The position numbers and the translations under genes are program-made. Source: an uncultured Oscillospiraceae bacterium (lineage in GTDB: Bacteria; Bacillota; Clostridia; Saccharofermentanales; UBA5734). Taken from it: 64,000 nucleotides of DNA. Below are positions 675 to 28,912 of this stretch, piece after piece (position 1 is the first letter of the stretch; each line of letters begins with the position of its first letter). Under the pieces are notes generated by a model, which made no database searches, was not told the origin of the DNA, and saw only the letters and a program-made list of their open reading frames with translations. The stretch lies in contig CAZZCN010000001.1 of the NCBI GenBank assembly GCA_964652975.1, forward strand, positions 27,191 to 91,190, read 5' to 3'.

Positions 675-2168
675 CTATTTTATCTTGTCAATTGCAGCAT
701 TAATCTTTGGAGTCATTTCCTGAACAACTGACGACCAGGGCTTTGAATCATACAGCACATTTCCCCAGAGTGACCAATAATAAAGTTCAGGCTGGAAACG
801 ATCAAAATATTGAATTACCGGATATGCATTCAGTCTTTGGTGCTCAAATTGATCATTTAGTACTTTCTTAAATGCTTTCATTGAAGCAGTATCAACACTT
901 TGAGCATCTTTTGTCAGCAGTCTTTCAGACAGCTGTGGCACAGTTGCAATCTCGACAGCTGCAATATAATCAGCAGCTGCGTTTGGGTTTGCAGCACCCT
1001 TTAAAATGATAAAACCCTTAATATATGATGGAACATAAGGTTTGTCTGCTTTCGGATCACGAGGCATCGGAGCATAACCCAGATTCTTGTTTTCAATCAT
1101 ATCAGGTAAATAGATATGAGGCGCGCCAATTATTAACATACCGATTTTCCCTTGTCGCATTCTGCTTAGTTCATCATTAAAATCCAACTTGGTTGTTACA
1201 TTGTTTTTTGCCGGACCTAAAGACTGTAAAAAGCTTACCGCTCTTTGAAGGTTCGGGTTGTTTAAATTAAGTGTATAGCCCGATTCATTAACAGAAATAT
1301 AGTCCTTGCCACTTGTTAATAGCAATCCATCCCAATAAGCGCTCTGGGCTCCCCACATATCTACGATACCATCACTGTCGATGTCCTGTGTGAGCTGCTT
1401 TGCATAATCAAGGAAAGTATCCCATGTCCATTTTCCGTTATAATACTGTGTTAATGGCTCTGTAAGTCCTGCATCCTTCATAACCTTTTTGTTATATGCA
1501 ATACCGTTGCTGGCAGTACATTCTGTAACAATAAACGAATTTTTTCCGTTATATTTTACAAGGGCCTGTGAATTTTTATTTCTCTGCCACAATGGAGCAT
1601 TTAAATCCATTATTTTTCCTGCATCTTGTGCTAAATCTGCTTTTAGAACCATTGGCCAATTACGGGATGCTTCCACATAAGCGGCATCTGCTGGATTGCC
1701 CGATGCTTTCATAGCTGCAAGCTTTTGATTCATTGTCAATGAATCCACTATTGTGTAGCTGACGTCACCGCTATATAGTGATTTATATGCCTTTGTCCAA
1801 TCTGTAACCCATTGCGACTTTGAATCCCATGGAATTACAACTTTAATTTTTTTGTTCGTTCCGGTATTGTAATTCGGAACAGTTACCTTGCTATAATCTA
1901 TACTGACCCCGATACCGGCACCTGGATCAAATTTTGTATTTGAAACAGACTTGCTCGAATTTGCTGTAGATGCAGCATTTGAAGAAGTACCTTCTTGTGA
2001 AGAGCCACTATCTAAATATTCATCGTCCGAAGAAGCACTGCTGCTTTCAGAAGTCGTAGAAAGAGTTGTTGAGATGGGTGTCGATGATGTTGTTGTCGGT
2101 TTTGGTTTGCAGGATATAACATTAAATAGCAATGCTAAACATAATAAACCAGTGATAATTTTTTTCAT
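675..2168 (-). CDS. Carbohydrate ABC transporter solute-binding lipoprotein
   Basis: Lipobox VISC, S/T linker, SBP_bac_1-like motifs (YNKKVMKDAGL, WTWDTFLDYAKQLT, DSDGIVDMWG). Confidence 0.88.
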   Translation of the reverse strand: MKKIITGLLCLALLFNVISCKPKPTTTSSTPISTTLSTTSESSSASSDDEYLDSGSSQEGTSSNAASTANSSKSVSNTKFDPGAGIGVSIDYSKVTVPNYNTGTNKKIKVVIPWDSKSQWVTDWTKAYKSLYSGDVSYTIVDSLTMNQKLAAMKASGNPADAAYVEASRNWPMVLKADLAQDAGKIMDLNAPLWQRNKNSQALVKYNGKNSFIVTECTASNGIAYNKKVMKDAGLTEPLTQYYNGKWTWDTFLDYAKQLTQDIDSDGIVDMWGAQSAYWDGLLLTSGKDYISVNESGYTLNLNNPNLQRAVSFLQSLGPAKNNVTTKLDFNDELSRMRQGKIGMLIIGAPHIYLPDMIENKNLGYAPMPRDPKADKPYVPSYIKGFIILKGAANPNAAADYIAAVEIATVPQLSERLLTKDAQSVDTASMKAFKKVLNDQFEHQRLNAYPVIQYFDRFQPELYYWSLWGNVLYDSKPWSSVVQEMTPKINAAIDKIK

Positions 2169-4688: not shown

Positions 4689-4726
4689 TTGATACATAGC
4701 GGATAATCTCATCCGCTATGTATCAA
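4689..4726 (-). other. Perfect 16-bp intergenic stem-loop with no U-tract on the coding strand (RNA stabiliser, processing site or weak terminator)
   Basis: TTGATACATAGCGGAT-aatctc-ATCCGCTATGTATCAA; followed on the minus strand by A-rich sequence. Confidence 0.75.
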
Positions 4727-7093: not shown

Positions 7094-8116
7094 TTAACCA
7101 ACTATTCCTGTTCTTTCTATGCTTTCTGTAAAATAACGCTGCAATAAAATATATATAATCAGTAAAGGTAGAATTGCAAGCATTGCACTTGCCATTGTCT
7201 GAGTAATCACATCATACGGATTGGATGTATTCAAGCCTGATCCTAAAAGCATTTTAATGTTTTGCAAAACCTTTGATACTACCGGCAGATTGTTGAAATA
7301 CATTGAATTGTAGAAAAAGTCATTCCAATACCATACAACAGAAAAGAGTGTAACAGTTAAAAATGGCGCTGAGGAACTTGGCAGCATAATCCGAAAGAAA
7401 GTATGCACCCTGCCACAGCCATCAATATAGGCTGCATCTTCCAATTCTTTTGGTAATCCTTTAAAAAACTGGATGAATATAAAGACAAACAAACCACCTT
7501 TAATCCCTTGCGCAAAAAGAGCCGGCAAAAAATAGGCTGCCATCTGGTCAATCAGAGATATTGTAATGGCCTTCCCCGTAAAAAGTCCTATTAAGCTACC
7601 TATTCCAAAAAAGTCAAAGCTTATAAAATTGACATACGATGGAATGATTATGGTAAGGGGCGGAACGATTATCGAGAAAAGCAAAAGTGAAAAAAGCAGT
7701 CCTTTAAAACGAAATTTGAAACGGGCAAATCCATATCCGGCAAGGCTACACGATATCAGCTGTAAAACTGTGCAGACTATTGTTATTTCCCCGGTAGTCA
7801 ATGCTATACTTAGAAAGTTCAGCTTTTCTATAACCTTTTGAAAATTTTCCAAAGTAAAATGCCTGGGTATCCAGACTACGGTGGGATCGAAAATCTCCTT
7901 TGGAATACGAAGAGAAATACTTAGCATAATCAGCAAAGGATATAAAAGCACAACGCTCAAACAAACAAGAAATACAAACCTGATAACAGCTATAATCATC
8001 AGACGAAGCGCTTTTGAACGTCTAAATACATTACTTCCGACATTCGTATCATACTGAAATAATTTTTTGTATTTATTTATTTTATGGGGTATATCTATAA
8101 GTCTTCTTATGTCCAT
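7094..8116 (-). CDS. Carbohydrate ABC transporter permease (MalG-like)
   Basis: EAA-loop variant PKELEDAAYIDG, YWNDFF, LQRYFTESIERTG; start moved to RBS-supported ATG 8116. Confidence 0.92.
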   Translation of the reverse strand: MDIRRLIDIPHKINKYKKLFQYDTNVGSNVFRRSKALRLMIIAVIRFVFLVCLSVVLLYPLLIMLSISLRIPKEIFDPTVVWIPRHFTLENFQKVIEKLNFLSIALTTGEITIVCTVLQLISCSLAGYGFARFKFRFKGLLFSLLLFSIIVPPLTIIIPSYVNFISFDFFGIGSLIGLFTGKAITISLIDQMAAYFLPALFAQGIKGGLFVFIFIQFFKGLPKELEDAAYIDGCGRVHTFFRIMLPSSSAPFLTVTLFSVVWYWNDFFYNSMYFNNLPVVSKVLQNIKMLLGSGLNTSNPYDVITQTMASAMLAILPLLIIYILLQRYFTESIERTGIVG

Positions 8117-8177
8117 CAGTAAAACCGATCCTTTCTTCAAAATGCTGCTCAAAACCTAAAAGGTAAATACAAATCTT

Positions 8178-9083
8178 TTATGTGCTAATCCTTCTGTTTA
8201 TAACAAAATATACTATGATAATTACAATAAATATAATAATAAAATAAATAAGGGCGAGAGCTGAACTATAGTCGATATTCAGGCTTTGAGCATATGTCAA
8301 TATCAACTTCATGACTGAATTTGTATAATCTGTAAATTCATCAATAATGGTGTATATAATATTCAAAAGTATCATAGGTATTATCATAGGAAACGTTACC
8401 CTCCAAAACTCCTCCCATTTGGTGGCACCTTCTACGCTGGCCGCCTCATAAAGTTGCTTTGGGACTGTTTGCAGTCCTGCCAAAAAGAGAAGAATTTGAA
8501 TGCCGGATTTCCAGGAAAGGCTGAAAATATTATTTACCAGATTTAAGATCATAGTAACAATGCTATTATCAAAACCTGAACTCATAAGTATTTTTTGTAG
8601 CCCTGAAGCTTGAAACAAAATTGAATTTCTATCTCCCGAAAGGAGCATTTTTGCCATTTCGTTGCTGTTAAGCATATCTATTATAACTCCACTGGCAATG
8701 ATTACAGGTAGAAAATATACTGCTCTGAAAAAAGTCCGGCCTCTGAATTTCCCGTTTAAAAGCATCGCAATGAAAAGAGAAAAGAAAAGAATTATTACAA
8801 CACGGCTTGCCATAGATACCAGGGATTCAGTTAAATCCCGAACAAATTGTGGATCCTCCGTAAATGCCTTCATGTAATTGGCAGCTCCAATAAACCTATA
8901 GCTTATACCACCACCATCTGGAAAACTTATTTTATTAAAGGAAAAGATGATTGCTTGAACAAAAGGCTTTGCAAAAAAGAAAACAAACCCAATCAGCCAT
9001 GGCAGAACAAACATAAGCCCTGCTAATTCATTTTTCCTTTCATAGGATGTTTTGCGTCTGATTTTTTTAAATGAATTCAACAA
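8178..9083 (-). CDS. Carbohydrate ABC transporter permease (MalF-like)
   Basis: LAGLQTVPKQLYEAASVEGA, FVLPWLIGF; start uncertain (TTG about 9083/9080). Confidence 0.92.
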   Translation of the reverse strand: MLNSFKKIRRKTSYERKNELAGLMFVLPWLIGFVFFFAKPFVQAIIFSFNKISFPDGGGISYRFIGAANYMKAFTEDPQFVRDLTESLVSMASRVVIILFFSLFIAMLLNGKFRGRTFFRAVYFLPVIIASGVIIDMLNSNEMAKMLLSGDRNSILFQASGLQKILMSSGFDNSIVTMILNLVNNIFSLSWKSGIQILLFLAGLQTVPKQLYEAASVEGATKWEEFWRVTFPMIIPMILLNIIYTIIDEFTDYTNSVMKLILTYAQSLNIDYSSALALIYFIIIFIVIIIVYFVINRRIST

Positions 9084-9084
9084 C

Positions 9085-11307
9085 TCACCGCCCATCTTCA
9101 ATAAAATAACCTTTTGCCGGAATAGTATTGCCATCAATAATAATGTCTTTGTCTGTATAGTTGATTAAAATTGCCTTGCCGCTTTTATAATATGTTTTTG
9201 ACACGCCATTTTGGATATTTTCAAAATCAGTTATTATTGTGCTACCTGTTTTTTTGATAATTTCAGAATATTGTTTATACTGTTGCGTAATGCTTTCACG
9301 CCAAAATGCATAGTTTGTACCAATGTTATCATCAAGTACAGTGTTACGTAAAACTGTATCCGTATCTCTTACGGCGAGTGTATATTGCAGTCTCGAGCCT
9401 GTAGCTATGGCATTAAGAAAAAATTCATTAGGTGAATGGTTTAGGTTTAAAGGAGTTGTCGTGTAATCCACCAGTCCTGAAATGCTAAGTTGATAAAACG
9501 GGACAGCCTCATCAATAATATCCAGTTTATCGGTGCTTGTCGGAACGTTTGATAAAATATTTGCATATTTAAAAGCATAGGCATTTGAATTGGTCAACAA
9601 TAAGCTGCCTGCTCCGGTTTTTAATATTTCAAGCGAAGTTTCGAAGGCGGTCTGAGTTTGGTTTCTTTCAGATATAACACTTGAAAAATCAGAATAGTTT
9701 AAGCTGCCAAGACTATTAATTGCCAGGCCTGTTGCATTAAAATCCAAATAGCTTTTAATAATCTTTCGTGTATTGGCTTCAAGCAAGGATGGACGAACAA
9801 GAAACAATGTAGGCTTCGTTAAATCCTTGATAAAGGTGCTTGGCTTATAGAAACTTTGTCTCACAATAGAGCCATTCAAATTTTTTGCAGCCTCAAAATA
9901 TTTTTGGAAAGGATATCTTTCTTTGGTATAAGTAATTAAATCTGTTTGAGGATAAAACCCGATGCCGTTATCCTTCGCATATTCACTTAATGTCTTATAC
10001 GAGCTCCTGCCACCTAGCGCAACGCTTGGAGTGAGGCTTTTTGCAATATTTCCATTTATCTGCTCCGAAGTCCACTGTGTCAATCTTACATCAAAATCAT
10101 TAATACCTTGCTCTTTAAAATACTGCATTATATTTTTAGCATCTGAAAAAGTAGTTAAAGGCTTTGTAATTTCAAAAGGAATTCCTAAAAAGCTCGTTTT
10201 TTTCTTTATCGCCCCGATAAGGCTGATCAGCGGACCGATCCTGTTTTGCTTTTCTTTTAATCCGTCATGCTTAATCAAGTAACTTTTATAAGTTGCTGCC
10301 ATTTCTTTTAGCCCGTTTACGACACTCAATGGGAAATACCGTATTTCTATTAAAGGAAGTGAAGGCTTGGTTTCTTGATAAACCGCAAAGTTTTTGCTGC
10401 CTTCATAGCCTTGGTCCAAACTGTATGAACCAATTTTTCTTATTTCAAATGAGGAATATATATTATTATAGCTGTTCTTCTTTTGCGAGGTGGCGGCATG
10501 AATGACAGACTGCGAATCGCCCTCTGAAATCACTGCTAAAAAAGCACTTTTATTGTTCTTTATACCAAACACCGGCAGACGGATTGTCTCCTTGGAATTT
10601 CCCGTTACATCAGGTACAACAGATGCATCACCGCCATAAACAGGCTCGGAATATTCATTTGCGTAGGTTCTGCCATTGTTAAAATGTATTAAGCCACCAC
10701 TGCCATCGGGGACAAGCATAAATCCTCTGTCATTTAATCCTCCGGCTCCGAAAAACGGGGCTACATCAACTCCATAAATAGTATTTGTCCCTTTTTCTTC
10801 AATTTTAGAAACAGGAACTTTTATGGAGAAATAATCATCCAATAGCTGGACCTGTAAAGGAACCATGATTTTTAGCGATGGAAATGTAAAATCAAACTCT
10901 GCTCCGTTTTTCATAAGTCTGATTTTCATTCCGCCCTCGTTTAAACTGCTCGAAATATTATTTGTCGTGTTCAATTGGTTTGCAACGCTGTCGTAGTATG
11001 TAATAGAAAGAATCGAGGAGAGTAAAACCCTGTTGACACCTTTTGCTATTGAATCCTGGTCTACTCCGACAGGATTGGATAGTAATATTTGATTATCAGC
11101 CTTATTATAAAGTGCAAAGGTCGCTTTTTCCCTGTTGATGTATAAAGCCAGACTGTCATTTTCCGCCACGCACTCAGTAAATCCATCAATAGCAGGCTTT
11201 ACACCATCGGCATATGAAAAAATCCAAAGTTCTTCTTTATTCGATATAAAGGAACCTATCATACAAAATGTAAGCAATATGCAAATATATTTTTTGAATT
11301 TTTTCAT
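9085..11307 (-). CDS. DUF5696-like secreted protein
   Basis: N-terminal signal/anchor; GFMLVPDGSGGLIHFNN, LPVFGI, PLTTFSDA, VPFYQL motifs; typical position between a Yip1 gene and permeases. Confidence 0.78.
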   Translation of the reverse strand: MKKFKKYICILLTFCMIGSFISNKEELWIFSYADGVKPAIDGFTECVAENDSLALYINREKATFALYNKADNQILLSNPVGVDQDSIAKGVNRVLLSSILSITYYDSVANQLNTTNNISSSLNEGGMKIRLMKNGAEFDFTFPSLKIMVPLQVQLLDDYFSIKVPVSKIEEKGTNTIYGVDVAPFFGAGGLNDRGFMLVPDGSGGLIHFNNGRTYANEYSEPVYGGDASVVPDVTGNSKETIRLPVFGIKNNKSAFLAVISEGDSQSVIHAATSQKKNSYNNIYSSFEIRKIGSYSLDQGYEGSKNFAVYQETKPSLPLIEIRYFPLSVVNGLKEMAATYKSYLIKHDGLKEKQNRIGPLISLIGAIKKKTSFLGIPFEITKPLTTFSDAKNIMQYFKEQGINDFDVRLTQWTSEQINGNIAKSLTPSVALGGRSSYKTLSEYAKDNGIGFYPQTDLITYTKERYPFQKYFEAAKNLNGSIVRQSFYKPSTFIKDLTKPTLFLVRPSLLEANTRKIIKSYLDFNATGLAINSLGSLNYSDFSSVISERNQTQTAFETSLEILKTGAGSLLLTNSNAYAFKYANILSNVPTSTDKLDIIDEAVPFYQLSISGLVDYTTTPLNLNHSPNEFFLNAIATGSRLQYTLAVRDTDTVLRNTVLDDNIGTNYAFWRESITQQYKQYSEIIKKTGSTIITDFENIQNGVSKTYYKSGKAILINYTDKDIIIDGNTIPAKGYFIEDGR

Positions 11308-11347
11308 TAAGTCCATCCTTTCTGTAAATGTCGCACTTTCTTCTTTT

Positions 11348-13432
11348 CTATTTTAATCTGTATAAAAGTTCGGAAATAATTGCTCCGAAAAACGAAATCG
11401 ATTGCTGAATCAATCCAAAGGCTAAAAAAACAATAAATGCTATTATGGCAATCCCTAACATAGTAAGCAGAAGAGAAATTATTGTTTTCTTAAGTGTATA
11501 TTGATGAATTGCCAACAGACCACCGACAAGCACAGCAATGCTCCAGATCATTCCTCCCCATAAAAGCCATACTACATAGATCCATTCTTCAATTGTCAAT
11601 AAGTGACTTAACAGGACAGAGATATAAATTGTGGCGGTATAAGGGATTAATGAATAACCACAAACTGTGAAAATCTCCCTGAAACGTCCCTTGCCATCGA
11701 GCAAAGTGCAAACCCCCCAGTTAGAACTTACAAAGGCTATAAATAAAACAATTGTCTGAACAAACGGGAAAAATATATTAAAATCATCCGGGTTGGAATA
11801 ATTAAACCTAAAACCAGTCGCCTGACTTTTTAATATGGTGGCGGCAAAGAACAGCAAAACAATAACGGCTGGTACAAAATAGGAAAACTTTTTGTGATTC
11901 TTCAATTCTTCAGTGGTGCTGACAGGGTGAAACAAGACACTTAAATGCACGTGTTTTTCAATTTCTTTTTTGTCTTTTAAGCGATGCTTTTTGAGATAAC
12001 GAAAGAGAAAAATCAAACCTGCAAGTAAAATAATTGCGATAAAACATATTAGCGGGAATTTCGCCTTCAAAAAATCCGTACGATAAAGTGCAAATGCTTT
12101 TGAATTTTCAGCTCTGTTTTGAGCTTGTTGATAGTAATACTGTGCCTTATCGTTATTTCCTTCAGCCATCAATGCTTTTGCAATACCGTTGTATGCCATT
12201 TGATAGTTTGAGTCAAGCTTCAAAACCTTTTCCCATTCGCTTTTTGCATCTTCATACAAACCATCATTATAAGAATTAACGGCTTTATGAACTGCTATTC
12301 CAAATTCAGTAGGTATGAATGTCGTAATGGAAGCCTTGGCAGAATCCAGAACATAAATTTTATCTTCATAGCTTTCAATTGCAACCGGTAACTTAAATGT
12401 TCCTTCCTGCTGACCTATACCACCATAAATCAAAAGAAGATTACCTTTATTATCATATTGAAATATTCTTCCGCGAATGCTGTCAAGAATATTTATCAGG
12501 CCGTTTTCATCAACATTAATGTCAACAATTTGGCTAACTACAAACTTAGATGCAATAAAAGCAACTTCCAGGTCGCCGAAAGAATTTTGGTTGCGTAGGA
12601 CGTTCACTCCTTTAGGGTTAAGTTTTTTAACCCTGTCTGTTACCACAGCTGAAGATTGAGTGCAGGTATATATAAAACCTTTGTTGTCTATGTCAAAATT
12701 ATAAAATTCATCCGGTACATATTGAGATATAAGTTCATTTTGCTTTTTTGTCATAAGTTTTTTCCAGAACAAATCACCCAGTAAATTCAGTGTAACCTGA
12801 ACTCGATTACTGCCGTAAAAGCCATAAAAAGTGCCAGATGTGTCATAAACAACAGCACCTTGATAAAGACCGGCAGATATTACATAAATATAGCCGCTGT
12901 TATCAGCCACAACTTTCGAGGGCTTGTAGATATAATCCGATGGAATTAAATCTGACTGTGGTTTTGTGAGAAGATTGAATACATTACCTTCTATGTCACA
13001 AATTATTACTCTTGCATTGCCCGAATCTGCAATGTAAATTTTTTTCATTCTGTCTACGAATAGTCCGGTAGGATTGACAAGCTTCAAAATTTGACCTTTA
13101 TATTTAAAGTCACTGATGATTCTTGAATTATTAAAGTTTTCATCAGTAACAACAACACGCCCGTTACCACTGTCTAATATGTATATACCGCCATCACTGT
13201 CAATAAACATATCAGAAGGTGTTTTCAAATCAGATATTGCAGCTCCGCTTAAATCTTTTATGTTACTTGTCGTAGTAATCGCATGTGTAACATATCCTAT
13301 CTGTGATGGAACAGCTGTATTAAAGGAATTATATGTGTACCCCTTGTATGGCTCTATTGCTTGTACTGAAACTGGTGGTAAACAAACAATAATCAGCACT
13401 AAAGCCAATAAGATTATTCTAATTGTCTTCAT
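11348..13432 (-). CDS. NHL-repeat beta-propeller / TPR / Yip1-domain membrane protein
   Basis: NHL repeats (PSDMFID..IYILDSGN; PTGLFVD..IYIADSGN), TPR-like segment (WEKVLKLDSNYQMAYNGIAKA), TM helix, C-terminal multi-TM Yip1-like region (NWGVCTLLDGKG). Confidence 0.82.
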   Translation of the reverse strand: MKTIRIILLALVLIIVCLPPVSVQAIEPYKGYTYNSFNTAVPSQIGYVTHAITTTSNIKDLSGAAISDLKTPSDMFIDSDGGIYILDSGNGRVVVTDENFNNSRIISDFKYKGQILKLVNPTGLFVDRMKKIYIADSGNARVIICDIEGNVFNLLTKPQSDLIPSDYIYKPSKVVADNSGYIYVISAGLYQGAVVYDTSGTFYGFYGSNRVQVTLNLLGDLFWKKLMTKKQNELISQYVPDEFYNFDIDNKGFIYTCTQSSAVVTDRVKKLNPKGVNVLRNQNSFGDLEVAFIASKFVVSQIVDINVDENGLINILDSIRGRIFQYDNKGNLLLIYGGIGQQEGTFKLPVAIESYEDKIYVLDSAKASITTFIPTEFGIAVHKAVNSYNDGLYEDAKSEWEKVLKLDSNYQMAYNGIAKALMAEGNNDKAQYYYQQAQNRAENSKAFALYRTDFLKAKFPLICFIAIILLAGLIFLFRYLKKHRLKDKKEIEKHVHLSVLFHPVSTTEELKNHKKFSYFVPAVIVLLFFAATILKSQATGFRFNYSNPDDFNIFFPFVQTIVLFIAFVSSNWGVCTLLDGKGRFREIFTVCGYSLIPYTATIYISVLLSHLLTIEEWIYVVWLLWGGMIWSIAVLVGGLLAIHQYTLKKTIISLLLTMLGIAIIAFIVFLAFGLIQQSISFFGAIISELLYRLK

Positions 13433-13439
13433 TTGTCTG

Positions 13440-14300
13440 TTATTCCCCCTTGATCCCTGAATGTGCCATTGTTTCCAGTATCGAACTTTGCGATATTACA
13501 AATATAATAATAGGCGGAGTCATCAAAAACAATGCAACTGCTGACCCTGCTCCCGCTCTTGCAATTCCGGCGGTGGCAATTTGAGAAAGCACAGCTGGCA
13601 AGCCTTTTAATGTTTCATCATAAATATAATTGATTCCAGTTGCATTCCAGAACCCTTGAAATGCAAATATGATTAATGTGATCCAACCCGGTTTAACACT
13701 TGGCATAACGATATTCCAGAATATATGATATTCACCTGCTCCATCGATGCGAGCAGCCTCAATAATTTGAAAAGGAATTGTAGTCATAAACTGACGCATT
13801 AAAAATACACCGAAAGTACTTGAAAGTGCAGGAATAATCAGGGCAAAATATGTGTTGATCATACCTGTTCCGGAGAGAATTACGTAGGTAGGAACAGCAG
13901 TAACCTCAGTTCTGAACAAAATTGCCCAGACCACCAGCTGAAAAAATACAACGCTGCCTGGAAACTTAAACTTGGCCAATGGATAAGCTGCCAAGGAAGC
14001 AATTATTATATAGGTCACTGTACCAAAGCTCGCAACAAAAACGCTGTTAAAAAGATATCGCAGAAAAGGAACCCATAAATTAGAAGCAAGAGAAAACATC
14101 ATTGTAAAATTATCAAGTGTCGGATGCTGTGCAAAAAAGCGTGGAGGAAATAGAAACAACTCATTCAAAGGCTTAAATGCATTTACTACTGTATAAACAA
14201 GAGGTAAGACCATAAATAGACCGCCCAGGCACAGAAGCGAAAAAGCTGTCATATTTCCCCAGATGGAACGGGTTATTTTTTTTCTTTTAAAAATTTTCAT
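13440..14300 (-). CDS. Carbohydrate ABC transporter permease (MalG-like)
   Basis: FLMRQFMTTIPFQIIEAARIDGAG; AFKPLNELFLFPPRF. Confidence 0.92.
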   Translation of the reverse strand: MKIFKRKKITRSIWGNMTAFSLLCLGGLFMVLPLVYTVVNAFKPLNELFLFPPRFFAQHPTLDNFTMMFSLASNLWVPFLRYLFNSVFVASFGTVTYIIIASLAAYPLAKFKFPGSVVFFQLVVWAILFRTEVTAVPTYVILSGTGMINTYFALIIPALSSTFGVFLMRQFMTTIPFQIIEAARIDGAGEYHIFWNIVMPSVKPGWITLIIFAFQGFWNATGINYIYDETLKGLPAVLSQIATAGIARAGAGSAVALFLMTPPIIIFVISQSSILETMAHSGIKGE

Positions 14301-14338
14301 CCAAGCATCCTCCTCTCTTCTAAATAATAATTAAATAA

Positions 14339-15292
14339 TTAATTCCCTGATAGTTTTTTAAAGACACGGTTAATTACAACCCAGAACAACAGCATAATAC
14401 CGAATAAGAAGACTGCTATTGCAGATGCATATCCCATTTCAAAGCGTATTGTCCCATAATCAAGGATCTGTAAAAGAATAGTATTGGTAGAATAGTCGGT
14501 ACTCGGGAATCCGGTAAGAGCCATACTTTGATAACCAACAGCAAATGAAGCTGAAATGGTCATTACCGCTCCGAATAAAAGCTGTGGTGCCATTTGAGGT
14601 AATGTAACATACCAAAGTTCCTGATAACGATTGCGAACTCCATCTATTGCAGCCGCCTCATAATATTCAGGATTTATTGTCTGAAATCCCGCAACAAATG
14701 ATAAAAAACCTGCGCCCATGCTAAGCCAGATAATAACTAAAATAACAATTCCCATGTTATATTGTGCATCAGTGAGCCACTGAATAGGTTCTGTTACTAT
14801 GCCAAGACGCATAAGAGTGCTGTTGGCAAGCCCATATGTATCCCCTGCAAAAATAAAAAGCCATATAAAGAAAACATTGCCGGCAAGTGTTGGTGAGTAA
14901 AATACCAATGTTAAAAACGAACGGGAACGAGGAGAAAAATCATTGATAAACCATGCAACCAAAAAACTTAGGAAGAAACCCAACGGTCCTGTTACAGCTG
15001 CAAATATTAATGTGTTTCTAATACTGATGGGGAAAATGGAATCCTCAAAGAAAAGCCTTATATAGTTTGTAAGCCCTGTGAAATTCGGAAATCCAACCAT
15101 GTCAAAATCTGTAAAACTGATAATGATGGCAGATACAACAGGTAATAACCCAAATGTGATGAAAAGTATTGCAAACGGAGCCAGCATAGAGTAATACACA
15201 GCATTTGCTTTGACACTCTTTGCAAGACTTTGTCTATTTGCTATTGATTTAGGTGTTTTACTATTTAACACTTGCCTTTTCTCCTTCTTCAA
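14339..15292 (-). CDS. Carbohydrate ABC transporter permease (MalF-like)
   Basis: YYEAAAIDG; RFEMGYASAIA. Confidence 0.92.
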   Translation of the reverse strand: MKKEKRQVLNSKTPKSIANRQSLAKSVKANAVYYSMLAPFAILFITFGLLPVVSAIIISFTDFDMVGFPNFTGLTNYIRLFFEDSIFPISIRNTLIFAAVTGPLGFFLSFLVAWFINDFSPRSRSFLTLVFYSPTLAGNVFFIWLFIFAGDTYGLANSTLMRLGIVTEPIQWLTDAQYNMGIVILVIIWLSMGAGFLSFVAGFQTINPEYYEAAAIDGVRNRYQELWYVTLPQMAPQLLFGAVMTISASFAVGYQSMALTGFPSTDYSTNTILLQILDYGTIRFEMGYASAIAVFLFGIMLLFWVVINRVFKKLSGN

Positions 15293-15308
15293 TATTTCAC
15301 AAAACTAT

Positions 15309-18194
15309 TTAAGGCTTCCTTAACTTATTTCTATATTCTTTATTCTTTCGTTCAATTTCCGTATCAATATATTTTGCATATTTATTAAGAATTTCACGTT
15401 CATTGTAGTTGTAATATACAACATTTCGAAAAGCATTCGTTACGTTTCTTGTTACATCATAGCTGCTAGGTATTTGAGGAACTGCATAAACTGTTTTCCA
15501 TTGCTCCATCAACATATTATATTCATTGGTCTGCCAGGGAAGCATTTCCAATGATTTGATATTTGCAACATTATATCTGGCTGCCGGTCCCATAAGTCCC
15601 TCGATTTCAATTCCAAATTTCGCTTGAATCCGATCAGAAGTCCACCAGTCCAAAAAAGAAAAAGCGCTTTGTTTATCCTTTGATCTCTCCATCAATACAG
15701 ATGCAGTACCACTTGAGGTTTCAGCACGATTTATTGTTCCGTCCACTTTTTTTGTACCCGGTATTTTTGTCATTTTCCACAAACCCTTTAATTCAGGAGC
15801 CAATACATCCAGAATATTATATGTAGTATACGGGGCAATCCCCATTGGCATCTCTCCTGTTCTGAAACGATTGTAGAAATCATATACAAGCGGAACACTG
15901 TAATCCGTAAAAAAGTCTGTCCACATTTTAAAAGCATCTAATGCCTGTGTGGTATCAAAATTTGTTTTTGTTAGACTTTCATTAAAAAATGTCCCTCCGT
16001 TTTGATAGATAAGTGTTTCAAAAAAGCCCTGGTCCGTCGGAATACCAACATCCAGATTATTGTGCTGAATGATTGGAAGTATTTTGTAAAAATCATCCCA
16101 GTTATCTGGTGGATTTATGCCAAGTTCATTAAATATATCAGTTCTATAAAAGAGCATATTATAGTCCTGGGTATTGGGAATGGCATATATACCGCCATTG
16201 AATTGATATTTTACATAGGCTGAAGGATAAAAACGCTCTTCGATTTTCTTAAAGCCTTCAAAATTTTTTAAATTGGTAAGTGCTCCTCTCATCGCCAGGT
16301 TGACAGGCAGATCATTTGCAACAAGCAGTGCGATATCCGGCCCCTTGCCTGCAAGAGTAGCTTGAATCAAGGTATCGGATCCATTGACTAAATTCAGTTT
16401 CACTGCAGTATTAGTGTCAGGTGTAAATTGTTCATCAATCAATCCACGGACAATTTGTGCCTGGTCTCTCCCCGAATTTACCCAGACCTTGATACTCTTA
16501 TTTGCGTTGTCACCCTTTTTTAAAACTCCGATTGAGTTATAATCAATATAAAACGAACCCATGAACCCTTTAATTGCAAATGATATTTCCTCGAAAACGT
16601 CTGACTTTGCCTTAGGTGCTGATAAACCAGTTGGATAAAGTTCAAAGTAATCCAACTCCAAAGGTTGCTCCTTGATGCTAAGCAACCATGAGCCCAAAGA
16701 GCTTATGTTTCCCTTAAAAGAGTCAAGTCTCAAAGGAATAGAAGTTGGATTTTCAATAAAGCTGTCGATTTGATTTGCAAATTCCAGTAAAAATGATGCT
16801 TGTGACCCCTTGTTTTTTACAATACCTTCAACCACCCTGGCTTGTAACTTTAACTCAGATGATATAATCTTTAAGTCTTTAACAAGCCCTGGAATTGCCT
16901 TGTCTAAATTGTAATCTCTGTACCGGTCTGGAACTACGCCCGTAATTTGAATGACTTTCCTATATATATTATTCAGGGTGTAAACCATATTCTCAAGCTT
17001 TTTTAGTGTATCTGACATATCCCCCAAAATTGCTTCCAATGAAAAAGTATGCACTCCTTCTTCAAGATAGATTTTGTATGGCTTGTCACCGCCAGCCACT
17101 AAAACATACCAGTCAATATTAAAAGGGAATTGAATATTTCCTAATTCGTTATATAAGAGCTTGCCGTCAATCATAAGTCGTCTTGAGCTTATCATTCCAC
17201 GATTGTAATTTTGCTTGACACGAAAAGCAATACTATAGAGTCCTGTTTTATTTACCTTTACGTTATATGTTAATACCTGGCCTGGAATCTTCCAATTGTT
17301 TTGACCTATTGTATTCAGTAAAATAAGCGTCGGATCGGAAGGACTTGTTGCAGAAGATATTCTGTCAGTTGACGGAAAAAGCATAGGGCTTGATTTTAAA
17401 ATCGCATCCTCTCCCTCTACACGGACTCTATCATTGGCGACAGCATATCCACTTTTATCGTATTGTTCTTTTATCACACTGTAATCCGGACTGCTTTGCA
17501 GGGGTGAAATGATAAGTTTTTTAATATACGCCCCCTCTTGCGTGAATTTTATATAAACGCTATGCATTCCCGTCTCAAAAAATATTTTAAACGGCTCATT
17601 GTAATAGCCGTTGTTATCACTAAAATATTCTGTTGAATACCTCTTAATCTCAATTTGTTGTGGTCGAAGCTGATTTTTATTGACATCGGTTTTGAAGGGA
17701 AACACCTCGTTTGTATAGCTTCGTTTTAAGTTGACTTGCTTTGCTTGTGAAAAGAGAAATGCTCCATCAACCATAAAATCAAGGAGTATATCCCCACCCT
17801 TTTTTCCTCCTGCCGAATAATCCAAGCCTATATTGTAAAATCCGCTTGATAAAATCTCAAATGAAAATCTGGCTCCACTTGTTTCAGAGCTTAATGAAAT
17901 CATATGCTCTTTTGTATCAATATCTGTAGCCTTAAACTGCTGGCCATTATCATCCTTAGACAAAGCAGAATCAACAGTTACATTTATTTCACCCGATTTG
18001 ATGTTCTCATATTTTTTAATGTAGTCATCATAGCTGATAGATGTATCACTTGTGAGAATTTTTTGAGGTTCTTTATTCATCCCCGTGTTTTCAGCTGCCA
18101 TAATACTTAAAGGATACGAAAATACCGCAGTAATTACAATGAAAGTATAGCAAAAAGTAAATATATTGATTTTTTTATTGCTAAAAAGCTTCAA
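15309..18194 (-). CDS. Very large (961 aa) extracellular solute-binding protein with N-terminal beta-sandwich and helical extension
   Basis: C-terminal ~400 aa SBP_bac_1-like (GRDQAQI, GPDIAL, MLFYRTDIF, FYNRFRTGEMPMGI); N-terminal ~550 aa extra domains (VEGED, LNTIGQNNW); signal/anchor helix, no lipobox. Confidence 0.85.
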   Translation of the reverse strand: MKLFSNKKINIFTFCYTFIVITAVFSYPLSIMAAENTGMNKEPQKILTSDTSISYDDYIKKYENIKSGEINVTVDSALSKDDNGQQFKATDIDTKEHMISLSSETSGARFSFEILSSGFYNIGLDYSAGGKKGGDILLDFMVDGAFLFSQAKQVNLKRSYTNEVFPFKTDVNKNQLRPQQIEIKRYSTEYFSDNNGYYNEPFKIFFETGMHSVYIKFTQEGAYIKKLIISPLQSSPDYSVIKEQYDKSGYAVANDRVRVEGEDAILKSSPMLFPSTDRISSATSPSDPTLILLNTIGQNNWKIPGQVLTYNVKVNKTGLYSIAFRVKQNYNRGMISSRRLMIDGKLLYNELGNIQFPFNIDWYVLVAGGDKPYKIYLEEGVHTFSLEAILGDMSDTLKKLENMVYTLNNIYRKVIQITGVVPDRYRDYNLDKAIPGLVKDLKIISSELKLQARVVEGIVKNKGSQASFLLEFANQIDSFIENPTSIPLRLDSFKGNISSLGSWLLSIKEQPLELDYFELYPTGLSAPKAKSDVFEEISFAIKGFMGSFYIDYNSIGVLKKGDNANKSIKVWVNSGRDQAQIVRGLIDEQFTPDTNTAVKLNLVNGSDTLIQATLAGKGPDIALLVANDLPVNLAMRGALTNLKNFEGFKKIEERFYPSAYVKYQFNGGIYAIPNTQDYNMLFYRTDIFNELGINPPDNWDDFYKILPIIQHNNLDVGIPTDQGFFETLIYQNGGTFFNESLTKTNFDTTQALDAFKMWTDFFTDYSVPLVYDFYNRFRTGEMPMGIAPYTTYNILDVLAPELKGLWKMTKIPGTKKVDGTINRAETSSGTASVLMERSKDKQSAFSFLDWWTSDRIQAKFGIEIEGLMGPAARYNVANIKSLEMLPWQTNEYNMLMEQWKTVYAVPQIPSSYDVTRNVTNAFRNVVYYNYNEREILNKYAKYIDTEIERKNKEYRNKLRKP

Positions 18195-20041: not shown

Positions 20042-23000
20042 CTAAATGTTTTGGTTTATTGATGCAACACCGATAATTTCTTTTTTCACAGCTACCAGAT
20101 CACTTATAGTTACGCTTCCCTTGTTTTTTGTATCAGCCGCCTTGAAAGCAATTCCTGCCAAGGTGCTGCTCTTAAGTAAATGAGATTTAACAGCCGCCAG
20201 ATCAGAGACATCTATTGTACCGGTCTTGTCAACGTCTCCATATATAACAGCAGTTTGGTATGATAATTGGCCGTCAATATTAAAAACAATCCTTGTGCCG
20301 GTTGATACCAGGGCTGAGTTCCCAAGTGTGCTTGATCCGTTTTTAAGTGTTACTTCAGATGAAACTTTTGTCAAACTGCTGATAAAGCCTCCAACAGTTG
20401 TGTTTTTCGAAATATTACTTACATAGCCATTTGACTGTTTATAACTGCCCATACCAACCGAAGGAGTTGGACGATATAGGAAATTAGGAGTTCCAAATAT
20501 TGTATTTGCAATTTTTGTGTCTTTAATATAATCTGTACCCGCCAGGAAAATATTGGTTGAAATATTAATTCCGGTATCAGAAGTTATCGCCACAGTGCTA
20601 CCTGCCAGTCCCTTATCGTAGAATTTGGGATTGTTGGCAGAAGTATCATATACCACAAGGTATTTTTCACCACCAGTCAATTTTAACGGAGATTGTAGCT
20701 GAGTATAATTGAATCCATCTGATCTGACAGTATTTAAATTGATGTTTATCACTGAAGAACCTACTAATACTGTGTTTGCTGCGGAAATGGAATCAGTTCC
20801 ATCAGTCAGCACTTTATAAACATATTCGGTTGTTTGAGTTGCACCTTCAAAATACGGTGCTCCCAGATGAGATACAGTTATATCACCTGATGGAGAGAAC
20901 ATGAACCCGAGTTGACCGGTATAATCATTTCTTATTCCGAATTTAGCTCTGTCAAAATTCTGTATAGCCATACGTATTGGATTTTGTTGTGAAATATCAA
21001 TATTCCGGTAATATAACCCATCACTCGGGTAGTTTGAGCAATATGCAATAAAAGCCGAACTGTTATCAACAACCAGGGAACTTAGCATAGCCGAGTAATT
21101 TGCATTAGGAACAAAAGTAACCGCCTGCTCATTGGTCCATGAAACATTATTCCCGTTTACCGAACCTGTCATACAATAGCTCTTGGAATAAACATCACCG
21201 TTATAAATATTGTCCTTGTCACTTTGGAACGTCAGAAGAAGGTCTCCATTCGGCAGGCTGGTGATATATGGCGCATTTGTGCGTTTATCTGTTACAACCG
21301 GTGTGTAGATAATTTTGCCTTCTGCGGACCAGTCTGTCCCGTTGCTTGATATTTTGTACTTAAGCCCGTATTTGGCTGGTAAAAGGTCTGTACACTCATA
21401 TACAGTGATATATCTTCCGTCAGCCAGCTGTGTAAATACCGGCATGCCATCTCTTGAAGTGGTTGAAGATGTTACGTTGGAAGCACTGCTCCACCCGGTT
21501 GAAGGATTATAAGTTTTCATTTGAATGTACTGATATGAACCATCTGAAAGTGTGCTCGCCCCGTCATTTGCATACATGCATACTATGTTTCCGCCTATCT
21601 TCCCGATAACCGGCTCCCACACTCCCCTGAAGTCCGTTGCAGTCTCGCTTGCTATTATCGCACCTGTCGAAAGCGGGTTCCATGTTGCACCATTATCTGT
21701 GCTCTCTTTAACTTTCAAAGAGGTATACCAGGTTCCCGAACTTTGATAGCTAACCCTGTAGGAACACCAGATATTTCCGTTGTCAAGCACAAACAATTCA
21801 GCAGTGGAGCAGCTCTTGCCGCTCTCACTGGCAATAACAACCGGAGTCGTACTGAAGCTTTGTCCCCCGTTGTCTGAATAGACCACTTTAACACTGGTTA
21901 CGTTGACATCGTCTTCATTGGTATCAAAAGTACACAATATTCTGCCGTTGCCTAGTTTCTCCATACGCGGGTAAAATACTCCATTTGCTGATGGTTTATA
22001 GATTGTTGAAATGCTGCTGCTCAAAGTGCTGCTATCATAATCATTGAAAAGCCCTGACTGTCTTGTAAACTTGAAAGTGGGTTTTGCAAATGAATAATTG
22101 TCTCCACTTATACCGGTTTCAACCGCAAAATAAGTTACGCCATCGCCATAAATGGAATTCAAAATGTTTATGGCAGGCTCTGGTACCGGTTTTGTTATCT
22201 TGTCATAGAAAGTTGGGTAATTTGCATCCGAAATCAACACCAAAGCATAATTCTTACCGGGTACCAATCTAGGCGGAGCCGAAGGATAGAGCGTAGTGCT
22301 GTAATTGTAGCCGTATTTGTCAACTGTCAAGGCATCGTTGTATACCAAGGCAGCCGAAATCTCGGTGAAATTTGCAGGATTCAAGTTCCCCGTTGCGGCA
22401 CCGCTGTATTCAAATATTTTGACCGTTGTGAATGCGTTTCCAGGGATATATGGGGCTCCAAGCGATGTTACAGAAACAGTTTCATTGACTGTAAAACGAG
22501 TGCCTACATATCCATAAAAGCCATTGGTCGGAAAATAACTTGTCAGTCCTGGATTTGTCATCATATCGGTTGTCTTGGTCTTATTAAAAGTAAATGTTGG
22601 CTTTGCAAATGAGTAGTTGTCACCCGCTTCGCCTGACTCAATCATAAAGTACGTAGATCCGTCGCCAAAAACCGAGTTTTCGACGGTAACAACTGAGTTG
22701 GCCACCGGTTTTGTAATCTTGTCATAAAATGTTTTGTAATTCACGTCGGCAATCAACACAATCAGATAGTTACGGTTCGGTAAAAGTATCACAGGCTGCA
22801 CAGGAACGATCTCTGTGCTGTAGTTGTAACCGTTTTCGTCGGTTGTCGCAGAATTACTAAGTACGATGCCTGCCGACAGTTCAGTGAAATTTGAATATGC
22901 AATATTCCCAGTTGGGCCACCTGAATATTCGAAGATTTTGACGGTTGTTGCTGAATTGCCTTCTATGTATGGCGCTCCAAAAGATGTTACAGTAACCGGT

Positions 23001-23179
23001 TCTTTTACTGTAAAACGGCATCCAACGTAACCATAGAAAGTGTTCGTCGGATAAAAATTTGTCAACCCGGGGCTTTCCAGCATGTTTTGCCGGACGGTTG
23101 TTGCATAAATACTGCCGTTAAACAACGACATTACCAACACAAGCACTAAAAAGACCGCTAAACAATTTTTCTTTTTCAT
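20042..23179 (-). CDS. Secreted modular glycoside hydrolase: 2x DUF4082-like (B1), GH93/BNR-like propeller, DUF4082-like (B2), pre-dockerin module, dockerin
   Basis: YPRMEKL, Asp-boxes SDNGGQSF and STDNGATW, VWEP, RDGMP; repeats FYGYVGxRFTV..FAKPTF; dockerin GDVDKTGTIDVSDL..AADTKNKGSVTISDL. ATG 23179 has AGGAG RBS; in-frame TTG at 23206. Confidence 0.8.
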   Translation of the reverse strand: MKKKNCLAVFLVLVLVMSLFNGSIYATTVRQNMLESPGLTNFYPTNTFYGYVGCRFTVKEPVTVTSFGAPYIEGNSATTVKIFEYSGGPTGNIAYSNFTELSAGIVLSNSATTDENGYNYSTEIVPVQPVILLPNRNYLIVLIADVNYKTFYDKITKPVANSVVTVENSVFGDGSTYFMIESGEAGDNYSFAKPTFTFNKTKTTDMMTNPGLTSYFPTNGFYGYVGTRFTVNETVSVTSLGAPYIPGNAFTTVKIFEYSGAATGNLNPANFTEISAALVYNDALTVDKYGYNYSTTLYPSAPPRLVPGKNYALVLISDANYPTFYDKITKPVPEPAINILNSIYGDGVTYFAVETGISGDNYSFAKPTFKFTRQSGLFNDYDSSTLSSSISTIYKPSANGVFYPRMEKLGNGRILCTFDTNEDDVNVTSVKVVYSDNGGQSFSTTPVVIASESGKSCSTAELFVLDNGNIWCSYRVSYQSSGTWYTSLKVKESTDNGATWNPLSTGAIIASETATDFRGVWEPVIGKIGGNIVCMYANDGASTLSDGSYQYIQMKTYNPSTGWSSASNVTSSTTSRDGMPVFTQLADGRYITVYECTDLLPAKYGLKYKISSNGTDWSAEGKIIYTPVVTDKRTNAPYITSLPNGDLLLTFQSDKDNIYNGDVYSKSYCMTGSVNGNNVSWTNEQAVTFVPNANYSAMLSSLVVDNSSAFIAYCSNYPSDGLYYRNIDISQQNPIRMAIQNFDRAKFGIRNDYTGQLGFMFSPSGDITVSHLGAPYFEGATQTTEYVYKVLTDGTDSISAANTVLVGSSVININLNTVRSDGFNYTQLQSPLKLTGGEKYLVVYDTSANNPKFYDKGLAGSTVAITSDTGINISTNIFLAGTDYIKDTKIANTIFGTPNFLYRPTPSVGMGSYKQSNGYVSNISKNTTVGGFISSLTKVSSEVTLKNGSSTLGNSALVSTGTRIVFNIDGQLSYQTAVIYGDVDKTGTIDVSDLAAVKSHLLKSSTLAGIAFKAADTKNKGSVTISDLVAVKKEIIGVASINQNI

Positions 23180-23333
23180 TTTTTTACACTCCTTCTTTTT
23201 TAACAATTTTGATAACTACCTATTTTTAATTTTTTAAATATATTTTGAAAATATATTTTGCCGGTAATTGTATATTTGAAAAGCGATTAGTATGATATCG
23301 CGGCAAAATAAAAAGTTTTGGTGAGACTGTATA

Positions 23334-24827: not shown

Positions 24828-24828
24828 T

Positions 24829-28770: not shown

Positions 28771-28912
28771 AAATTTTCCTGTTCCGCACAACAGCATTTA
28801 GTGTGCTAATATATTCAAAAATCGGTTTTAATTTTCAATGTTTCTAATTCCTGGACAAGTATTTCAGTTTAATCATTCAAGTCTGCCAATATTTCGAATT
28901 CAGGTCTGCAAA

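Follow-up and report, generated by a model that had tools for sequence, protein, structure and literature searches.

Why would a bacterium keep two ATP-binding cassette (ABC) permease pairs in one operon, with an accessory trio of proteins encoded between them and no ATPase? The question is raised by seven genes within a 64,000-nt stretch of DNA (hereafter the window) from an uncultured Oscillospiraceae bacterium (GenBank assembly GCA_964652975.1, contig CAZZCN010000001.1, positions 27,191 to 91,190 of the forward strand). These genes, which we call the cassette, encode a giant solute-binding protein (gSBP), a first permease pair (pair 1; P1a and P1b), a fusion of an NHL-TPR ectodomain to a Yip1 domain, a DUF5696 protein and a second permease pair (pair 2; P2a and P2b). 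MalEFGK2 and the MsmX/MsmK-powered importers of Firmicutes, which draw on a shared orphan ATPase, belong to the CUT1 family (TC 3.A.1.1). Combining gene order across genomes, paralogous copies within the host genome and the predicted folds of the proteins, we conclude that the cassette is probably a conserved glycan-uptake unit of eight to nine genes, in which two functional CUT1-type ABC importers are combined with a constant accessory trio (NHL, Yip1 and DUF5696).

Gene order of the cassette is conserved

All seven open reading frames (ORFs) were recovered on the minus strand where a preliminary description of this DNA had placed them, and the Pfam and NCBIfam domain identities agree with that description. 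By the ORF list and its coordinates they are co-directional and packed within positions 18194..7094; reading from gSBP to P2b, successive genes are spaced by gaps of 16, 38, 7 and 31 nt, an overlap of 53 nt and a gap of 25 nt. The overlap, between the DUF5696 gene and P2a, follows from calling each ORF at its first start; translation of P2a likely begins at an internal ATG at 9095, leaving an overlap of 11 nt. The reported absence of an ATPase was likewise borne out. ABC_tran was found in 0 of 39 scanned window ORFs (of 41 ORFs of at least 150 aa), and none of the 55 ABC_tran matches of the host genome lies on C1, the contig that carries the window.

The preliminary description stated that this expanded gene order recurs elsewhere, and it does. 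Among 401 sampled genomes of the phylum, DUF5696 was found in 46 at E≤1e-3 and exceeded the family cut-off in 35. We assembled a first, hand-picked set of 20 loci, in which 18 genera are represented by a single locus each, with a second copy added in two cases, and found a core of NHL-Yip1-DUF5696-P2a-P2b contiguous and in order in 19. The gSBP-P1a-P1b genes were directly upstream of this core in 13 loci, directly downstream in 3 (the permuted loci L057, L061 and L063), missing in 2 and not assessable in 1. At the atypical locus, L066, DUF5696 stands alone, 3 kb from a permease pair.

A second set was fetched independently and comprised the best 80 of at least 584 relatives from 185,579 species genomes. 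It includes Oscillospiraceae, Ruminococcaceae, Acutalibacteraceae, Lachnospiraceae, Paenibacillus, Cohnella and Ruminiclostridium, together with two Treponema-labelled metagenome-assembled genomes (MAGs) and one labelled Sodaliphilus. Counting loci with enough flank, the five-gene core was present in 65 of 68 and the full eight-gene order in 53 of 54, the exception being a circular permutation. A second solute-binding protein (SBP) gene came after P2b in 37 of 53 loci and before gSBP in 4 of 53.

Permuted forms are informative about the internal structure of the cassette. In the three permuted loci above, and in a fourth on contig C20 of the host genome, gSBP-P1a-P1b and NHL-Yip1-DUF5696-P2a-P2b are always kept intact. 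These permutations and the reduced forms considered below therefore divide the cassette into two units, gSBP-P1a-P1b and NHL-Yip1-DUF5696-P2a-P2b (plus SBP).

Full cassettes are also found in L116 and L128, both labelled uncultured Treponema sp. and both with a second SBP, and in L137, labelled Sodaliphilus sp. Cassettes in MAGs labelled Spirochaetota or Bacteroidota could reflect transfer into diderms or binning error.

Eleven diverged copies in one genome

Searching the host genome (3.35 Mb in 217 contigs, completeness 96.8%) by tblastn with the window proteins returned 11 matches each for the giant SBP, NHL and DUF5696, and its 11 DUF5696 (PF18952) matches each lie within a cassette copy. 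Eight copies are complete in the order gSBP-P1a-P1b-NHL-(TPR)-Yip1-DUF5696-P2a-P2b, those on contigs C112 and C71 are cut by contig ends, and the copy on C20 is circularly permuted (NHL-Yip1-DUF5696-P2a-P2b-gSBP-P1a-P1b). NHL and Yip1 are fused in 5 of the 11 copies and encoded by two genes in the other 6.

Identity to the window copy was highest for pair 1 (42-62%), followed by the SBP domain of gSBP (35-48%), pair 2 (34-46%), the carbohydrate-binding module (CBM) region of gSBP (27-36%) and DUF5696 (23-29%). At such divergence the copies appear to be old, and the lowest values, in DUF5696 and the CBM region, fit surface parts that set specificity. The flanks of the copies differ as well, with genes for GH95-like, GH123, two GH28, GH38, WbsX-like, large F5/8-type-C and dockerin proteins (GH, glycoside hydrolase family); AraC or LacI regulators flank copies other than that in the window, and a normal-sized SBP occurs near 7 of the 11 copies at a variable position. 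The eleven copies probably represent one for each kind of complex carbohydrate that the bacterium eats. High copy numbers recur in other species: four genomes of 2.2-3.0 Mb had 19, 11, 10 and 11 DUF5696 matches, some of which are fragments.

The WbsX-family (PF14307) genes are at L013:595-1725 (contig C20) and L017:6581-7498 (contig C112). On C20, a gene of the uroporphyrinogen decarboxylase family (URO-D-like; L013:17750-18829) directly follows P1b of the permuted cassette, and a second URO-D-like gene, in the window itself (27538-28797), adjoins a conventional CUT1 operon.

Both permease pairs resemble CUT1 importers

All four permeases carry BPD_transp_1 (Pfam) and are of UgpA/MalF-like and UgpE/MalG-like types (NCBIfam). 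We scored their EAA loops, which couple a permease to its ATPase, by core motif and by reading the sequences. An EAA-type loop was readable in every inspected sequence of all four families; its strict core was present in 6 of 26, 24 of 25, 16 of 30 and, for P2b, 30 of 30 sequences, and the non-strict loops have EAG, EAS or EVS variants followed by an ITLP/ITFP motif. E231 is invariant and G237 near-invariant in P2a, as are A241, D244 and G245 (all invariant) in P2b. MalF/MalG-type permeases with EAA loops and binding proteins of the SBP_bac_1/MalE type are the features of CUT1 (TC 3.A.1.1), and the cassette pairs are predicted CUT1 sugar importers. We considered pair 2 as an exporter or a device for surface glycan assembly and rejected this, all parts being type I importer components with binding proteins.

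By coordinates, ABC_tran is absent from every cassette of the host genome. The genome has a single OB_MalK ATPase, on contig C9, scoring 505 bits against a UgpC subfamily cut-off of 432, and we infer that this MalK/UgpC-type ATPase serves the cassette permeases.

The host genome encodes 76 permease ORFs, or about 38 pairs, and 22 CUT1 pairs belong to cassettes. We placed its 38 MalF-type ORFs in a quick maximum-likelihood tree with a midpoint root, a careful search being unfinished. All 11 cassette P2a sequences formed one clade (Shimodaira-Hasegawa-like approximate likelihood-ratio test, SH-aLRT, 100), 10 P1a sequences and one ORF from a stray contig formed a clade of their own (SH-aLRT 100), and the other 16 ORFs fell outside both. 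The stray ORF is probably the partner of a truncated cassette copy.

A giant binding protein that usually lacks a lipid anchor

Pfam places SBP_bac_1 at residues 581-857 of the 961-aa gSBP (E 8e-23), so that some 560-580 N-terminal residues are without a Pfam match, in keeping with the extension of about 550 residues noted previously. Its gene starts with TTG, preceded by GAGGGAG. An AlphaFold2 (AF2) model (predicted local distance difference test, pLDDT, 87.2; predicted template modelling score, pTM, 0.83) has a signal/anchor helix (8-25), two beta-sandwiches (72-231 and 257-389), a four-helix bundle (391-508) and a MalE-like domain (566-958). Searched in Foldseek at full length, the model matched MalE-type SBPs (E 1e-21) and SBPs only, and the N-terminal extension was left without a match; in the protein atlas, the extension fell in unnamed clusters only. 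A profile of the extension reached further. Its second module matched the CBM35 of cycloisomaltooligosaccharide glucanotransferase (5x7g, E 5.5e-11) and its first gave weak matches to CBM35 and CBM6 entries (0.006-0.01), and we take the extension to comprise two predicted CBM35/6-like modules.

An N-terminal hydrophobic segment is present in 25 of 25 giant SBPs examined, a lipobox-like motif in only 3 of them, and in several the segment ends, as judged by eye, in an Ala-x-Ala-like site. Thus 22 of 25 have no lipid anchor. If such a signal peptide is cleaved, gSBP must be held at the cell by something else, and a membrane-anchored partner would then be expected.

An NHL-TPR ectodomain fused to a Yip1 domain

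In the 694-aa fusion protein, Pfam detects NHL (42 bits, cut-off 20), a weak TPR and Yip1 (54 bits, cut-off 28.6). A signal peptide is followed by an ectodomain extending to about residue 455, a transmembrane (TM) helix (459-477) and the Yip1 multi-TM domain (498-666), with hydrophobic segments at 516-534, 551-569, 618-636 and 654-672. A score above the gathering threshold and the multi-TM character together assign the protein to Yip1 (PF04893). NHL exceeds its cut-off in one stretch, partial ScyF-like NCBIfam matches lie at 62-161, and the propeller is predicted from sequence.

For co-folding, residues 455-694, which contain the Yip1 domain, were paired with P2a and P2b, all three entered as alignments. 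The score was 0.49, against 0.00 for the best of 3 controls, which is a weak pass; runs agreed in at least 62% of contacts, and partner pLDDT was at least 68. In benchmarking, 116 of 157 solved complexes and 2 of 215 mismatched pairs scored high enough to pass, and scores of 0.60 or lower among these took in only 18 of the 157 solved complexes but both of the passing mismatches. The model thus lends weak support to a contact between the Yip1 domain and pair 2, and, to the same extent, to the multi-subunit surface complex proposed in the preliminary description.

A Yip1-family protein has been linked to an ABC transporter before. In Bacillus, the Yip1-family multi-TM protein YknW is encoded with the ABC membrane components of YknXYZ and is reported to modulate assembly of that transporter (PMC4887032). 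The two systems differ in that YknYZ, a MacB-like exporter, works with a membrane-fusion protein, whereas the cassette comprises type I importers, and in that the Yip1 domain of the cassette carries an NHL-TPR ectodomain.

DUF5696 has a GH129-like fold and its own conserved residues

The 743-aa DUF5696 protein belongs to PF18952 (521.3 bits against a cut-off of 25.6, over profile positions 5-612 of 612), a family for which a search of 1.84 billion representatives gave 4,294 clusters (50% identity) at E≤1e-30. Its AF2 model (pLDDT 89.3, pTM 0.88) has a TM helix (2-24), a beta-sandwich (48-330), a (beta/alpha)8 barrel (about 360-650) and a C-terminal beta-sandwich (695-740). The best Foldseek matches were the GH129 structures ZgGH129 (5opq/8rzk, E 2e-34) and NagBb (5wzn, E 3e-26), at TM-scores of 0.6-0.7, with GH101, GH31 and GH36 ranking after them. 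A profile of 31 DUF5696 members also found ZgGH129 (E 1.7e-10) and NagBb (E 3.8e-8) in the PDB. The window protein has no match to PF11308 (GH129) at E≤0.01; a local hhalign run covering the barrel region gave probabilities of 95-96% against four Bacillota PF11308 proteins. We conclude that the modelled DUF5696 has a GH129/GH101-like three-domain fold.

Whether the barrel also keeps the catalytic acids, as the preliminary description suggested checking, is a separate matter. We take Glu478 to be the acid/base of NagBb, 43 residues from Asp435; in the four Bacillota PF11308 proteins, 'WFID' and 'GSEGG' motifs are 44 residues apart. The GH129 catalytic residues were placed on Bacillota homologues by this motif and spacing, not by structural superposition, and a phmmer bridge from a Bacillota GH129 protein to the PDB did not reach the catalytic region. 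The two motifs align to hydrophobic or variable DUF5696 columns. Column 533 takes hydrophobic residues; among 150 relatives, R occupies column 534 in 53, and D, E and N occupy column 575 in 38, 27 and 22, respectively. Thus the predicted barrel was found in the model and the GH129 acids, as mapped, are not kept. A DUF5696 subfamily that is active with canonical acids was also sought and rejected, as acids in columns 535 and 575 co-occur in 28 of 181 sequences against 28.6 expected. Catalytic residues also differ between the two GH129-type enzymes; Asp435 is a catalytic residue of NagBb, and of the two in that enzyme it is the only one conserved in ZgGH129 (PMC5698469).

A different set of residues is strongly conserved in DUF5696. 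When 150 diverse relatives were added to the existing family alignment, D204 was kept in 141, D230 in 143, D543 in 141, R551 in 149, D602 in 143 and N624 in 150. The window protein carries all six; among the host-genome copies, 9 of 11 keep D543 and 7 of 11 keep D602. Conservation of the six across these relatives speaks against a dead protein, and the set would fit either a binding site or a re-wired catalytic site. In sum, DUF5696 resembles GH129 (NagBb, ZgGH129/DagB) and GH101 in its beta-sandwich, (beta/alpha)8 barrel and C-terminal beta-sandwich and in remote profile similarity, and differs from GH129 in the missing PF11308 match, in variable columns at the presumed nucleophile and acid/base, in an N-terminal membrane anchor and in being encoded nearly always inside the cassette.

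Setting of the window copy

The features of the cassette and its surroundings are collected in Table 1. As the preliminary description had it, a conventional lipoprotein SBP is encoded downstream (2168..675), and it is the probable partner of pair 2; it is not the next gene, being separated from pair 2 by the genes for a dockerin protein and then an orphan protein of 832 aa. In most other genomes the SBP gene directly follows P2b with none inserted. Outside its dockerin, the 747-aa protein has no known family: a PDB search matched dockerins only, and the protein atlas returned nothing above noise. The 832-aa protein has 0 Pfam or NCBIfam matches and 0 PDB relatives, and among 7,999 scored candidates its relatives were itself and one cluster at 72% identity. 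The hairpin between these two genes was rejected as a terminator, the coding (minus) strand having no T-run after the stem; it may act in the processing or the stability of the RNA. On the other side of the cassette, the intergenic region between gSBP and the AraC-family regulator is 347 nt long and AT-rich.

Table 1. Features of the cassette and adjoining genes, with positions in the window.
Feature	Position	Strand	Basis
Giant SBP (gSBP), 961 aa	15309..18194	-	Pfam SBP_bac_1, AF2, Foldseek, profile search
Permease 1a (P1a), MalF/UgpA type, 317 aa	14339..15292	-	BPD_transp_1, UgpA-like, EAAAIDG loop
Permease 1b (P1b), MalG/UgpE type, 286 aa	13440..14300	-	BPD_transp_1, UgpE-like E 2.6e-27, EAARIDG loop
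NHL propeller-TPR-TM-Yip1 fusion, 694 aa	11348..13432	-	Pfam NHL, TPR_2, Yip1; hydrophobic segments
DUF5696 protein, 743 aa	9085..11316	-	PF18952 E 4.6e-156, AF2, Foldseek
Permease 2a (P2a), MalF/UgpA type, 319 aa (first start)	8178..9137	-	BPD_transp_1, EAASVEG loop
Permease 2b (P2b), MalG/UgpE type, 352 aa	7094..8152	-	BPD_transp_1 E 6.8e-15, EDAAYIDG loop
Secreted protein with C-terminal type I dockerin, 747 aa	4749..6992	-	Dockerin_1 at 684-740
Perfect hairpin, 16-bp stem, between the dockerin and 832-aa genes	4689..4726		Sequence
Orphan protein, N-terminal signal and C-terminal TM segment, 832 aa	2176..4674	-	Hydrophobic ends
Conventional lipoprotein SBP, 497 aa	675..2168	-	SBP_bac_1 E 1e-17, lipobox VISC, then Thr/Ser linker
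AraC-family regulator, divergent, 281 aa	18542..19387	+	HTH_18, HTH_AraC, AraC_binding, Cupin_2

Upstream of the regulator (window 20042-24845) are genes for two BNR_2 proteins, one of 1,054 aa with a dockerin and one of 503 aa; by their domain matches these may be sialidase-like or other beta-propeller glycosidases, and may hint at the substrate of the window copy. Further along, 50160-53702 and 58441-61680 encode paralogous proteins of 1,180 and 1,079 aa, each with a weak GH42-like region and DUF4832, and between the two lie genes for a 932-aa protein with no Pfam match and a 570-aa Big_9-dockerin protein.

Near-identical DNA was found in metagenome runs from lake water and freshwater. At least half of the sampled words were present in 11 runs, of which 3 are possibly the source and the remaining 8 come from five studies; no RNA runs were listed among those matching the window. 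The host genome has 45 dockerin matches and 2 cohesin matches, both of the latter on contig C97. Given these counts and the freshwater runs, the host appears to be a freshwater glycan degrader with a small cohesin-dockerin system.

Relation to known systems

A search for the name 'DUF5696' across about 8.4 million papers and preprints had no match, a search of the literature on Yip1, NHL, ABC transporters, SBPs and polysaccharide utilisation found nothing on the cassette, and the literature found assigns no role to the accessory trio. The available text of a 2026 review of bacterial glycoside transporters contains no mention of Yip1, 'accessory' or 'MsmX' (PMC13543919).

A like-ordered cassette is already known as a co-expressed unit in Caldicellulosiruptor bescii, the match being one of annotated layout. 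The xylan degradation locus (XDL) of this species has an operon xloEFG-X-GH129-axoFGE-xynFED-..., in which the genes annotated like the cassette are Athe_0174-0181 and which has one mapped start, upstream of xloE. Xylan and Avicel induce this operon along with msmK, an orphan ATPase gene; induction was 21.7-fold for XloF, 20.7-fold for the NHL protein Athe_0177 and 10.6-fold for AxoF (PMC8579813). By annotation, the operon reads SBP, two permeases, NHL protein, GH129-type protein, two permeases and SBP. It serves xylan, whereas the window copy sits among dockerin, BNR-like and unfamiliar proteins; the window genome, in contrast, holds the cassette eleven times, and in the window copy NHL is fused to Yip1 and two additional genes precede the second SBP. 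For C. bescii, X and GH129 are left unexplained and the importers, XloEFG and AxoFGE, are ordinary and predicted, being two CUT1 importers deduced from genome reconstruction and RNA-seq (PMC8579813). What is available of two further Caldicellulosiruptor papers names the locus and not the X or GH129 proteins (PMC12285236, PMC7142884). New here are the eleven-fold expansion in one genome, the two-unit structure drawn from permutations, the Asp/Arg/Asn set of DUF5696 set against the missing canonical pair, and the two orphan surface-protein genes before the second SBP.

Compared with CUT1 importers that share an ATPase, the cassette has the same SBP_bac_1 proteins, EAA-loop permeases, operon without an ATPase and single MalK/UgpC-type ATPase elsewhere in the genome. 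It differs in having two permease pairs per operon with three proteins fixed between them, and in a 961-aa binding protein with two CBM-like modules, a helical bundle and no lipobox. The cassette is thus CUT1 import with a fixed accessory module that has not been described. A possible functional parallel is offered by the Sus-like utilisomes of Bacteroidota, which likewise occur as many paralogous loci with a surface binder, an enzyme-like protein, a transporter, carbohydrate-active enzymes and a regulator. There is no homology between the two: the cassette encodes ABC importers of the cytoplasmic membrane, and Sus-like systems an outer-membrane TonB-dependent transporter. For the cassette, a physical complex is a proposal.

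Discussion

The observation reported in the preliminary description was confirmed, and its interpretation is partly supported. We propose the following scheme for the cassette as a glycan-uptake unit. In the first unit, the two CBM35/6-like modules of gSBP would keep a polymer or a long oligosaccharide close to the MalE-like domain, and this domain would feed pair 1. The second unit would consist of NHL-TPR-Yip1, DUF5696, pair 2 and the lipoprotein SBP. Here DUF5696, as a membrane-anchored GH129-type derivative, would either bind the glycan or trim it at the membrane surface; the Yip1 domain would pack against the membrane domains of pair 2 and serve in assembly or as a scaffold; and the propeller-TPR ectodomain would hold the surface parts together, possibly including a gSBP that has no lipid anchor. 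The genome's single MalK/UgpC-type ATPase would power both importers in trans. The eleven diverged copies, each with different glycoside hydrolases and its own regulator, would serve different glycans and so fill the role of the SusC/D pairs in Bacteroidota loci. Established here are the content and order of the genes, their copy number and conservation, the folds and the conserved residues; in this scheme we infer every physical contact, the direction of hand-over, and any choice between cutting and binding alone by DUF5696.

That the parts form a joint machine is plausible given synteny, copy-number parity, permease clades specific to cassettes, an unanchored gSBP and one weak co-fold. Several observations pull the other way. 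Parts of the cassette can exist apart, as the reduced loci demonstrate: the gSBP unit is missing from L051 and L055, in L130 and L149 the 10 kb downstream of DUF5696 contain no pair 2, and NHL and Yip1 were not detected in L066 by tblastn. Rigid synteny can also arise from co-regulation and unit duplication alone, and both of our sets are biased, one being 20 hand-picked loci and the other the 80 most like the query. The permease clades come from a quick, midpoint-rooted tree, and a weak co-fold pass is of a kind more often wrong than right unless the guess was already likely. A trimming role for DUF5696 is unproven because the GH129 catalytic pair, as mapped by motif and spacing, is not kept.

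One alternative is that there is no joint machine, only two ordinary CUT1 importers, independent of each other, in an operon that also encodes unrelated surface proteins. Each pair does have its own binding protein and an intact coupling loop, the two units are found apart in L051, L055, L130 and L149, support from co-folding is weak, and the preliminary description itself allowed that the system might already be known as two ordinary importers, which is how, by reconstruction and RNA-seq, the like-annotated C. bescii locus is published (PMC8579813). We nevertheless regard this as unlikely. It does not sit well with an order that 53 of 54 loci share, among them loci of Paenibacillus, Oscillospiraceae and Lachnospiraceae and of two MAGs labelled Treponema, with 1:1:1:1 copy numbers across 11 paralogues, with P1 and P2 permeases in cassette-only clades, with a trio never parted from pair 2 in the permuted forms, or with a gSBP that has no lipid anchor in 22 of 25 cases and must be kept at the cell by something. 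The preliminary description also offered a structural or sensory role for one pair, and two pairs in one ATPase-less operon are indeed unusual, with pair 2 the more diverged (34-46% identity against 42-62%). This now seems very improbable: the ATPase-coupling loop is kept by both pairs and throughout the four permease families, pair 2 usually has a separate SBP after it (37 of 53 loci), and Pfam finds no kinase, HTH or other signalling domain in the cassette proteins.

A further possibility, compatible with the glycan-uptake unit favoured here, is that a re-wired site gives DUF5696 glycosidase or transglycosylase activity, and that its final cut at the membrane is coupled to import. Its GH129/GH101/GH31-like fold and remote sequence homology, four aspartates kept in 94-95% of 150 relatives along with R551 and N624, and a remainder that is the most diverged part of the cassette, a pattern of enzyme families with many specificities, all favour activity. 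D543 and D602 lie on barrel loops 59 residues apart, and the Asp/Asp pairs of GH31 and GH36 have a similar spacing. Also in its favour, catalytic residues differ between NagBb and ZgGH129 and only Asp435 is common (PMC5698469). Weighing against it, the columns to which the GH129-like nucleophile and acid/base were mapped lack conservation, 2 of 11 host-genome copies lack D543 and 4 of 11 lack D602, and a lectin-like site would account just as well for conserved Asp, Asn, Arg and aromatic residues. An active enzyme is therefore a serious possibility that falls somewhat short of our expectation.

The most far-reaching version of the glycan-uptake unit would be a Gram-positive 'utilisome', in which NHL-TPR-Yip1 ties together two ABC translocators, an unanchored giant SBP and a re-wired GH129-derived protein, such that capture, last cut and import of two product classes are channelled at one site; DUF5696 would then found a new family of glycosidases or pseudo-glycosidase receptors and mark Bacillota polysaccharide loci as SusC/D does elsewhere. 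We put this forward as speculative and rather doubtful.

Much less is known about how Gram-positive degraders of fibre and host glycans import long oligosaccharides than about the Sus systems of Bacteroidota, and the cassette is large, rigidly ordered and very widespread, with 10 to 19 matches in some small genomes. Should the accessory trio prove dispensable, the cassette is two importers and the published annotation stands. If the trio is a true part of the importer, the minimal model of CUT1 transport would need extension, polysaccharide loci of Gram-positive bacteria would gain a marker for their prediction, and a new GH129-related family of enzymes or receptors would be defined.

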